From NCBI GenBank assembly GCA_964035545.1, contig OZ037766.1:7864722-7928721 (forward strand): a stretch of 64,000 nucleotides of DNA. Direction: 5' to 3'. The DNA is from Bugula neritina. Its lineage: Eukaryota; Animalia; Bryozoa. The notes beneath the pieces were generated by a model. The model did no database searches. It was not told the origin of the DNA and saw only the letters and a list, made by a program, of their open reading frames with translations. Position numbers and translations under genes: made by a program. Positions within the stretch are counted from its first letter, which is position 1. Each line of letters opens with the position of its first letter. Below are positions 5,101-8,100 of this stretch, piece by piece.

Positions 5101-8100
5101 ATCAACTTCCTTTCTGTTTCCCTGGTGATACAATTACATAGAAATAGTTCAGTGATTATTTCAACATGACCAGGGGGTCGCGTTTAGAACCAATATAGTT
5201 AATTACAGAATCCCTACTAATATGTATACTATCATCCACAAATTTACAATAGCTACGTATTTTTAATTTGAATACTAATACTGTTATATTTTCCAGATTT
5301 AGGGTTGATGTGCCACCAAGAGAGTCTATTTATCACTAGAGAAACTTCACCGTGTTAAGTCGAGTAGATATCGTTATATTTTAATACAAGAATACATAAT
5401 AAAATCTAAGGTACAACAGTAATGATACGCACATCTATTTAATTTACAGCACTATCCTCAACTGAGCTAGTAGCGCGAAGCTGCTACTACTACTCATAAA
5501 ACAGCCTAGCTAATTGGCTAATACATTGTTCCGGGTCAATACGCAACCTTGCGTATTGTGTTGCTGGTAGCTCCACGAGCCACCACACTGCCCCCTCCAG
5601 CAGAAAGCCCTCTTTCTGATAAAAATAAAATTCACATAAAAAAACGTATACTTCGTTGGGGGGGGGGGTAAGAGAACAGTATAAAAGTATATACAAAAAA
5701 AAACAACAACTGATAAAATATACAGGTATATATAACGTGCACAATATGTAATAAGTAAGAGAAGGTCCTATCTACATGTAGAGTACGTGCCACCATAACG
5801 GTAGGGAATGCCACAGAGAGGTAGGGGAAGAGTAGTATGGAGTTGGAGATAGACTCAAGTTAACTGCGGGCCGCACGCTTCATGCGTTTAATAGACTCCT
5901 GTAAATATTTGAGTTCACTGGATGCAGCCTGCACCCGTGGGGCCAGTCTGTACACTTCTTGCTCCAAGTCGTGTGCCCTAGCTTCTACTTCACGTAGGTT
6001 GCGGGCCCAGGGGGACGAGCGAGAGGAAGTCGGCTGTCTGTGTCTTTTCCGCTCCGAGGATGGAAGGGGAGGAGGGAGTGTATACGCATTTGTGTCTACC
6101 CTCTGTAGTACGACACGAGGAAAGGTATGCGGCATGCGTAGAGGACTGTGAGGTGGAGAGTTAGTAGACTGTGTAGGTTTATCTGCGGCTCCAGAGATGA
6201 TGGGTCGCGGGGAAGGGAAGCCTTGCTCCAGGCGAGATAGCCGAGCTGAGTCAGTGATGAGTGGTTTGATGGCGTTGAGAAAGGCAGGATAGGATGATTC
6301 GTCTACTTCATAGACATGCCCTTGATAACACTGCATAGTACGTTGGTGCCGCAATAGGTAATCACGATTGTAGCTATATTCTCCGCAAGGGCAGAAAGTG
6401 GTGATGTAGTGCTGCGGCAAGTGTACTTTTAGTCTGCGGTGGGTTGTGAATCGCTGTTGGCAGAGGTTGCATTCACGATTACTCTCACCTCCTTGATGGG
6501 TCCTGATTTCTCTCTCTGTGGCAGGGGTAATCCAGTTGGAGGTTGCTTCCAACTGGGGTGGCAGTTGCCTGGTTGTAGGAGTTGTTGGGGCCGGCTCTGG
6601 GTCCCACGCCATCTTTAGAGAAGGCATGCCCGGAGAGACGGGCGCGAGTGTGTCTACAAAAGTAGAATTATTGTTAGATCGCGGTGGATCTTTACAACAT
6701 AATTCTAGTGACTGTCGACCGTTGCTAGCCTGAGAGTCACAGCTTTTGGAATGCACTCGAGGAACTGATGAATCATGTGTGGACTGACCAAGAACAGTGT
6801 CTAGCTCCAGGTCTAACAGACCGTCGGCCATTACAGTGTCTTCATCGTCATTCACATGAAACGTGGTTCCCAGTAATTCTGATTCAATCTGCTGAATTAG
6901 TTCAGAATTTACTGGCATCGAGCCCGTTTCCATGAATAGGAATACAAGACTTATACTGGCTTACCTGGGAACTCGGTATTAATGTCCATACTCAACGTTC
7001 TTGGTAAGGTTGGAGCTGGTTGTGAGATACGTCTGCCTTTGGCGATGTCAGCATAAGAAAAGGCTGAGCATCGTTTCTGAGGCACGAGGTCGGAACTATT
7101 TGCTTTACGCGCATTAATTCCTCCCACTATTCCGCCCTCGCAAAAGTTGATATTTGCGTGGGGTTCACAACTCCAACATTTTATCGTACGGTTGTCCCCT
7201 AGACTTTCATGTGCGCCGCTTCTAATGCAGTCACATACGAAGTCTTTTAAATATGGTGGGGGTTTCCTCGTACGCTGTCCCCTTTCTAGGGGGGGTGACA
7301 CGCTTGCCGGTTCGTTAGTAGGGGCCTCTAATGGCGTCTCTACTTCACCGTTAGCGGTCACCTCTTCTTGTTCTCCGGATGGAGCCCCTCCCTCCGTGGG
7401 GGTTTGCACTTCCGGAACCGGTTCGGTTTCTGGAAGTGATGGAATTAGACTTGGCGGTGGCGGACACGCTTCTGTTGACAAAAGCTGCCGCTCCTCTCTC
7501 ACCAAGTTTTCTTCCCGCGGTATGACCACTTCGTATTCAGGTCCATGCCGCCGTCGCCCGCGCGTTGTTGTCTGCCTCCTGGGCTCTAACAACGGGGGGG
7601 CTTCTCCCACTCCGTCGGGGCTAGCCCAATACGGTTTCAAGCGAGACTCATTCGGGATAGACACCTGTCCTGAGCGCTCGATCTTGTACGTATGATTGGG
7701 CATAGCCTCGACGACCACGTAGGGGCCTACGAACTTAGGCTTCAGTTTATCAGCCTGTCCGCGACGCCTACGGTAATTGACCATCCACACCTTATCTCCC
7801 GTTTGATAGAGAGGTGGTTCATCGGAATCTTCGTGCCGCACCTTCCACTGCCGTTGGCGCAGTATCTCGTGTGCGGCCTTCATCCGTTCCACTAGTTCAC
7901 TGGCATACTCGTGAACCGAGTTGTCTTGCTCTGGAACGTGATAGGTGAGATGGTCAGGGACACGAGTCTCTCTCCCGAGCATCAAGAGGTTTGGGGTCTC
8001 ACCAGTACTGGTGTGTGGGGTGCTACGGTATGCACGCATGACTTGCGGCAACACCGTATCCCATTCCTCTTGACCTCGTCCAAGGAGGAGACTCCGGAGT

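Follow-up and report, generated by a model that had tools for sequence, protein, structure and literature searches.

The third open reading frame (ORF3) of two Gypsy elements in the window, that is, in the whole 64,000-nucleotide stretch of Bugula neritina DNA analysed here, is a real, selected and apparently undescribed accessory gene. It lies between the pol stop (6951–6953 in element A) and the polypurine tract (PPT) and 3′ LTR, where retroviruses have env. Its position, conservation, purifying selection and motifs are established below, and what goes beyond conservation and the presence of motifs we infer from them. Tentatively, we propose that ORF3 encodes a nuclear protein that regulates the chromatin of its own provirus, a plausible reading that we put forward with less than even confidence.

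Two Gypsy elements with a gene after pol

Elements A (12732..5281) and B (23857..13734) both lie on the minus strand, to which the coordinates of element features given below refer, and both have the PR-RT-RH-INT order (Pfam), a primer-binding site, a purine tract and 4-bp TSDs. Element A is bounded by identical 307-bp LTRs of TG...CA form (5′ LTR 12426..12732; 3′ LTR 5281..5587) and by the TSD GTAT (12733–12736 and 5277–5280). It contains a primer-binding site (12407..12424), which we take to be of the tRNA-Leu type, gag (11743..12393), which is frame-broken at its 3′ end, pol (6951..11624) and a PPT region common to B (5588..5617); no tRNA gene was found in the window. Between pol and the PPT, in agreement with the preliminary description, ORF3 (5860..6933) is intact over 357 aa from ATG to stop. 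The LTRs of A are identical and its ORF3 is intact, yet the 6951–11900 region carries two in-frame stops in the integrase (8280–8282 and 8172–8174) and frame breaks in gag. A different member of its family may have copied the element in trans.

Element B has LTRs of 275 bp (5′ LTR 23583..23857) and 271 bp (3′ LTR 13734..14004) that differ by three substitutions and a 4-nt indel, the 4-bp TSD ATAT, and gag-pol in one frame (18062..23527) with stops at 20669–20671 and 18062–18064. Its ORF3 is split inside finger 2 by a 2,540-bp TIR DNA transposon (14906..17445, strand unassigned; 16-bp TIRs with a 15/16 match, TA duplication), in which no internal ORF of at least 100 aa was found. The 5′ piece (17446..17996) includes finger 1 and ends halfway into finger 2, while the 3′ piece (14366..14903) has an in-frame stop (14858–14860). 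The preliminary description, in which B keeps all the modules, leaves out that this ORF3 is not intact. It is the same gene as in A, and at finger-1 helix positions −1/2/3/6 both elements have T,R,R,V, but the reading frame is split by the TIR element and carries a stop. Since gag-pol is broken in A, and ORF3 is split and stopped in B, neither element is autonomous as it stands.

The LTRs of B are different from those of A and its gag has diverged, as had been noted: the sole local match between the A and B LTRs is 11 nt, gag is 50% identical and ORF3 is 56% identical. The words common to the two sets of LTRs are one 11-mer and a TAG repeat. Both LTRs, otherwise unalignable, carry GATAAATAGAC about 50 nt from the 3′ end, and a TAGTAGTAG run is also common to them (5281–5587 and 13734–14004); these two shared words are candidate promoter, poly(A) or binding sites. 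At the integrase C-terminus, neither A nor B yielded a Chromo match at E values up to 1.

Both elements are sense-oriented within one intron (window 5123–24907) of a coiled-coil gene that presumably resembles CFAP53, with flanking exons at about 5027–5123 and near 24910. The surroundings are gene-dense, with no evident heterochromatin. CpG o/e is 0.73–1.1 in the elements and depleted to 0.37–0.43 in host DNA. Two arms of approximately 350–390 bp (13014–13399 and 24367–24753), 88–90% complementary, bracket B and its TA-rich surroundings and are likely to represent a non-autonomous DNA transposon that received B. At 27321–27841 there is a degenerate array of (TAA/TAG)-type hexamers, together with a partner in inverted orientation. 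In run X2, which may be the source of the window, summed depth is far higher over the element than over the flank, fitting a multi-copy family.

Modules, relatives and selection of ORF3

The AlphaFold model of full-length ORF3 starts with a disordered N-terminus that has a helix at residues 8–21; a core predicted with confidence follows, then a disordered linker and, at the C-terminus, a long helix. The modules named in the preliminary description can be placed on this model. An acidic/hydrophobic segment is present at residues 30–48 (6790..6846), in an N-terminus that is acidic (13 acidic residues and one basic at positions 1–60) and without a hydrophobic core. The folded core, at approximately residues 121–245 (6199..6573), comprises two fingers and their flanking helices; it is followed by a PxVxL motif, PRVVL, at residues 272–276 (6106..6120) in the predicted disordered linker, by the basic patch RKRHR at residues 295–299 (6037..6051), a candidate NLS, and by the C-terminal helix, a predicted coiled coil, at residues 308–356 (5866..6012). 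With a maximum 19-residue hydropathy of 0.56, the ORF3 of A has no TM segment, as claimed. Hydropathy exceeds 1.6 in only one of 83 database relatives, P0060, which reads through into the 3′ UTR, and Pfam gave no match of ORF3 to an env family.

Finger 1 (C155-x2-C-x12-H-x3-H175; 6409–6471) is a C2H2 finger with a predicted beta-beta-alpha fold. It had been called canonical, a term that holds for its ligand spacing and predicted fold and not for its HMM score, since its Pfam score of 15.6 bits is below the cut-off of 25.2. The C-x-C-x12-H-x5-C finger also reported is found as finger 2, from C181 to C202 (6328–6393). Tandem C2H2 fingers are usually joined by a TGEKP linker. In ORF3 the link is five residues, YITTF, and with this link and an atypical finger 2 it is not a canonical TGEKP-linked C2H2 array. 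Finger 2 has an Arg immediately N-terminal of its His ligand, a feature of methyl-CpG-reading fingers.

The core modelled alone reached a pLDDT of 91.5 and a pTM of 0.82. Its top eight structural matches are all DNA-bound tandem C2H2 pairs, with Z-scores of 3.1–3.4 that are weak and concern the fingers only. They include Kaiso (Z 3.4, rmsd 2.9, 57 aligned) and ZBTB20 (Z 3.2, rmsd 2.4, 50 aligned), and the helices flanking the fingers had no structural match in the same search. The ORF3 finger pair superposes on such pairs (Kaiso/ZBTB33, ZBTB20, SALL4 and CTCF) with an rmsd of 2.4–2.9 over 50–57 residues, but differs from them in its five-residue link, its C-x-C...H-x5-C finger 2 and its packed flanking helices. 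The family profile matches SALL fingers (E 2e-5); C2H2 fingers bind RNA or protein too. Foldseek searches of the full model against the PDB and of the core against viral models returned nothing at E 0.001 or better, a full-length VIA search yielded generic coiled coils only, and matches in the ESM Atlas were to clusters that are either unnamed or generic C2H2, with fewer than 170 shared features. No family assignment for ORF3 was obtained from Foldseek, Pfam or the ESM Atlas.

The database relatives (58 from searches, 17 via the most distant match and eight cluster members, with 10 proteins looked up) include none that is named, and no host gene or named protein matching the whole core was found in the searches made. 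The 43 relatives with a complete core fall into two subfamilies, split at 100/100 in the tree, with core identity between them of about 40%; the ORF3 N-terminus is alignable between the subfamilies (hhalign 95.6%; segments anchored on a motif common to both). Many records are partial or decayed, and the finger-1 spacing is seen in 68/83 and the finger-2 spacing in 67/83, while the finger-1 helix reads T/S,R,R,V/I in 61 of the 76 readable rows. Flanking pol or PPT sequence is visible in two relatives, P0068 and P0060. The first (subfamily 2) starts with a pol C-terminal-like motif in the ORF3 frame (E 3e-5 to 5e-5), and P0060 is a read-through that extends into the 3′ UTR and the PPT. A pol C-terminal-like motif in the ORF3 frame also opens P0069 (subfamily 2; E 0.002 over 17 residues).

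Comparison of ORF3 in A and B, a single pair in which the two pieces of B were aligned to A separately, gave a pN of 0.313 and a pS of 0.740 over 348 codons, a ratio of 0.42 (95% 0.36–0.49); pS is near saturation, so the true pN/pS is lower than this. For the core only, the ratio is 0.35. ORF3 is under purifying selection, with a ratio that is not near 1, and the preliminary description was right on this point. Its further view that ORF3 is not a passively captured fragment is upheld by the same ratio, by the 83 relatives in two subfamilies and by the absence of a whole-core host match in our searches.

Of the 43 rows that extend 60 residues beyond the core, 35 have a [PL]xVxL motif within that distance (shuffle mean 2.6, maximum 8 in 1000 shuffles), a count that does not translate into a probability because the 43 rows are related. 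The motif stands in otherwise variable sequence, in a region predicted to be exposed or disordered (pLDDT approx. 40). Subfamily 1 has mainly PxVxL (PRVVL) and subfamily 2 mainly LxVxL (LRVVL); the strict motif is absent in 8/43 rows, including 4/12 of those from subfamily 2. PxVxL and LxVxL are HP1 chromoshadow-binding motifs according to the available part of PMC7465937, which adds that the motif by itself may not suffice for HP1 binding. From its sequence, we regard the PxVxL of ORF3 as a candidate HP1-binding-type motif.

The ORF3 profile gave 125 pattern matches in metagenome contigs and 63 matches in viral contigs, with no confirmed relative in either set, and neither integrase and RT scans of the viral contigs nor tblastn of phage records found anything. 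An integrase scan of the metagenome contigs yielded two loci. At a distant Gypsy locus, L001, the integrase is 34% identical and a post-pol ORF (L001:4542–4967) encodes C-x2-C-x12-H-x4-H and then C-x-C-x12-H, with a T-rich acceptor right before finger 1; the contig ends inside this ORF. It has the same ligand spacing as ORF3, which was matched in 0/20,000 shuffles. Taken as an ORF3 homologue, the L001 ORF has no profile support (hhalign 2%; hmmsearch not significant), and we treat L001 as a lead, not a homologue.

Predicted splicing and structured RNA

Predicted splice sites would give ORF3 more than one form. The aligned 5′ part of A and B has 196 GT sites in common. Five of them score at least 7/9 against the donor consensus in both elements, and the best two are the predicted donors D2 and D1; the splice-site test was post hoc. 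D1 (12345..12353) lies early in gag, after codon 14, at 12350 in A and 23490 in B, where the intron would start. D2 (6959..6967), CAG/GTAAGC, is in the pol frame and is the identical 9-mer in B; its position (6964 in A, 18027 in B) is 30 nt upstream of the A ORF3 ATG. Of 95 shared YAG sites, 11 have a pyrimidine tract in both elements and two of these also have a branch point, one being the candidate acceptor whose AG ends at 6654 and opens ORF3 codon 94. D1 (gag frame), D2 (pol frame) and the acceptor are all phase 1, and residues compatible with the acceptor are present in 45 of 46 relatives. A stricter acceptor scan passed B and failed A, and a stop in the pol frame of B lies 35 nt ahead of D2. 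RNA-library contigs from X1 (share 0.17) number 21, one of which falls on ORF3 (5933–6208, depth 2.6); no splice joint was seen in these contigs, whose cover is thin and includes no silent-region control, so that they speak neither for expression nor against splicing.

The 311-nt predicted intron from D2 to the acceptor (6654..6964), which spans ORF3 codons 1–93, is also a conserved structured RNA. Its folding z-score is −3.5 in A and −6.0 in B, and the joint A/B structure has 9 double-compensatory pairs of 79. The joint energy of −59.7, compared with a shuffle mean of −32.6 and a best null of −45.3, beats 100/100 column shuffles, while nine compensations were reached by 3/100. Structured windows here rank first and third of 40 along the element, gap-rich windows being skipped; other parts of the element are structured as well, and 8/74 single-sequence windows in A have z-scores of −3.1 or lower. 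In the last hairpin, the arms coding SELCCKD and RSNNNS are paired, covering a branch-point-like CTAAC (6673–6677). A search of Rfam found nothing in 5200–24000.

This hairpin alone can explain the conservation around the acceptor. Codons 1–93 are also real protein, with a pN/pS of 0.44 and an alignment that holds across subfamilies. Four-fold-site identity between A and B is 16/28 in ORF3 codons 1–93, which does not exceed that of pol, and 19/71 in codons 94–357; such sites are saturated in the latter and not in pol or in codons 1–93 (50–59%). Recombination or an element-wide RNA constraint may account for this contrast.

Candidate functions and known systems

Both the PxVxL motif and the fold of the fingers speak for a role in chromatin. 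In the regulator that we propose, the two zinc fingers would bind the element's DNA, PxVxL would engage HP1 so that silencing of the provirus is tuned, and the predicted coiled coil would pair the protein. Translation of the full-length form would begin at the ATG that closely follows the stop of the pol frame, and a D1-to-codon-94 splice would yield a shorter protein lacking the acidic N-terminus. The long form may activate and the short one may dampen or tether HP1; the branch-point hairpin could limit splicing so that unspliced genomic RNA survives. An LTR-specific activator is poorly suited to these data, because the finger-1 helix is constant while the A and B LTRs are unalignable, unless the site is a short word that both LTRs have. 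The preliminary description had suggested a transactivator, an anti-silencing factor or an integration-targeting factor; the motif and fold lean towards chromatin, but the choice among the three is not settled. An RNA regulator and the predicted splicing were not among its points.

A constant helix beside unalignable LTRs would equally suit a conserved RNA target, and it is conceivable, if unlikely, that ORF3 is an RNA regulator resembling CERV or Rev, made from a spliced mRNA and binding the intron RNA structure to export or protect unspliced genomic RNA. CERV of Cer1 provides a precedent in the same slot, in the available part of PMC10309623, and the structured RNA from D2 to the acceptor fits. 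However, this structure is derived from two sequences only, with the 8/74 further windows of A as a caution, and both PxVxL and a DNA-type finger pair would be superfluous for such a role. The ligand set of ORF3 is unlike the possible C4 finger of CERV, and the NES-like pattern at residues 35–44 comes from a loose regex (with two other matches) and sits in the part that the splice would remove.

The phase-1 donor in the pol frame of A and B, matching the acceptor phase, points to a different and less probable use of the protein, which we consider doubtful. A D2-to-codon-94 splice would fuse the fingers, PxVxL and the coiled coil to the integrase as an integration-targeting module, in the fashion of the chromovirus chromodomain. 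This donor and the pol-tail-like starts of P0068 and P0069 in the ORF3 frame keep integration targeting alive. Yet these two relatives may be read-throughs of decayed copies, no subfamily-1 relative showed a pol tail joined to the core, and in B a stop precedes D2 in the pol frame. Fused proteins (708–2020 aa) were found in 0/7,987 candidates, which is weak evidence, and the intron that houses A and B, with many genes around it, is not evident heterochromatin.

Improbable is the combination of these products, in which one env-slot gene would give three in-frame proteins: a full-length form whose activation arm is acidic, a short form that lacks this arm and has a Gag leader, and an integrase–finger fusion, with the conserved branch-point hairpin gating the splice. 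If true, one HP1-binding finger module would both set chromatin state and pick insertion sites. That ORF3 was captured from a host zinc-finger gene, or is carried along neutrally, is very improbable, for although finger 1 is a generic C2H2, pN/pS is well below 1 with synonymous sites saturated, 83/83 relatives are unnamed and two of them have flanking pol or PPT sequence, and the whole core was matched by no named protein in the searches made; the neutral reading is largely refuted.

Animal Gypsy elements are usually viewed as gag-pol with or without env, reliant on host transcription factors. A lineage that retains a finger protein of its own, bearing a motif of the HP1 type, would be a 'complex' retrotransposon, for which retroviruses with Tat, Rev or Tas are the comparison. 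With such a lineage one could test directly if the retrotransposons of animals code for sequence-specific factors that counter silencing by heterochromatin. Element A offers a natural intact ORF3, and its predicted junctions and motif allow sharp, cheap tests. No account of the ORF3 protein family was found in the full-text literature, Repbase, subscription journals and supplements being outside the scope of the search; an existing Repbase note on ORF3 is possible. The available parts of PMC2774666 and PMC13269885 contain nothing specific on ORF3.

Anti-silencing by a transposon has a parallel in VANDAL elements, plant DNA transposons that encode VANC. VANC is an extra transposon-encoded protein acting on the element's own silencing, as proposed here for ORF3, but it comes from plant DNA transposons. 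Errantivirus env occupies the same genomic slot as ORF3 and is likewise probably expressed by splicing; unlike env, ORF3 has neither a TM segment nor an env family match. The part of PMC11728184 available mentions the VANDAL VANC anti-silencing proteins and describes, in plant Gypsy elements, the 3′ aORF of Athila and the 5′ aORF of Tekay, which are conserved, of unknown function and proposed to have an anti-silencing role. These aORFs resemble ORF3 as conserved extra ORFs with a predicted NLS and long disordered parts, but on the same description they have transposase-like, TM or DRBM-like features, not C2H2 fingers, and plant hosts.

A positional counterpart is CERV of the Caenorhabditis elegans element Cer1. 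As described in the available part of PMC10309623, the spliced mRNA for CERV shares exons of the gag frame, and the protein carries an NLS, a leucine zipper and a Cys-rich loop, along with a G-protein-like domain and what may be a C4 finger. Export of gRNA depends on CERV, for which no homology outside nematodes is reported. It occupies the same slot after pol as ORF3, and is spliced to gag-frame exons as ORF3 is predicted to be. A CERV-type C4 loop with H, M and G domains is absent from ORF3, whose fingers contain His and whose model has no G-like domain. By that description, ORF3 is set apart by its C2H2 and C2HC finger pair, its PxVxL motif and its acidic N-terminus. Extra ORFs in Gypsy elements are already known, as CERV and the plant aORFs illustrate (available parts of PMC10309623 and PMC11728184); new here are the PxVxL/LxVxL motif, the two conserved predicted donors with their candidate acceptor and the conserved RNA structure.
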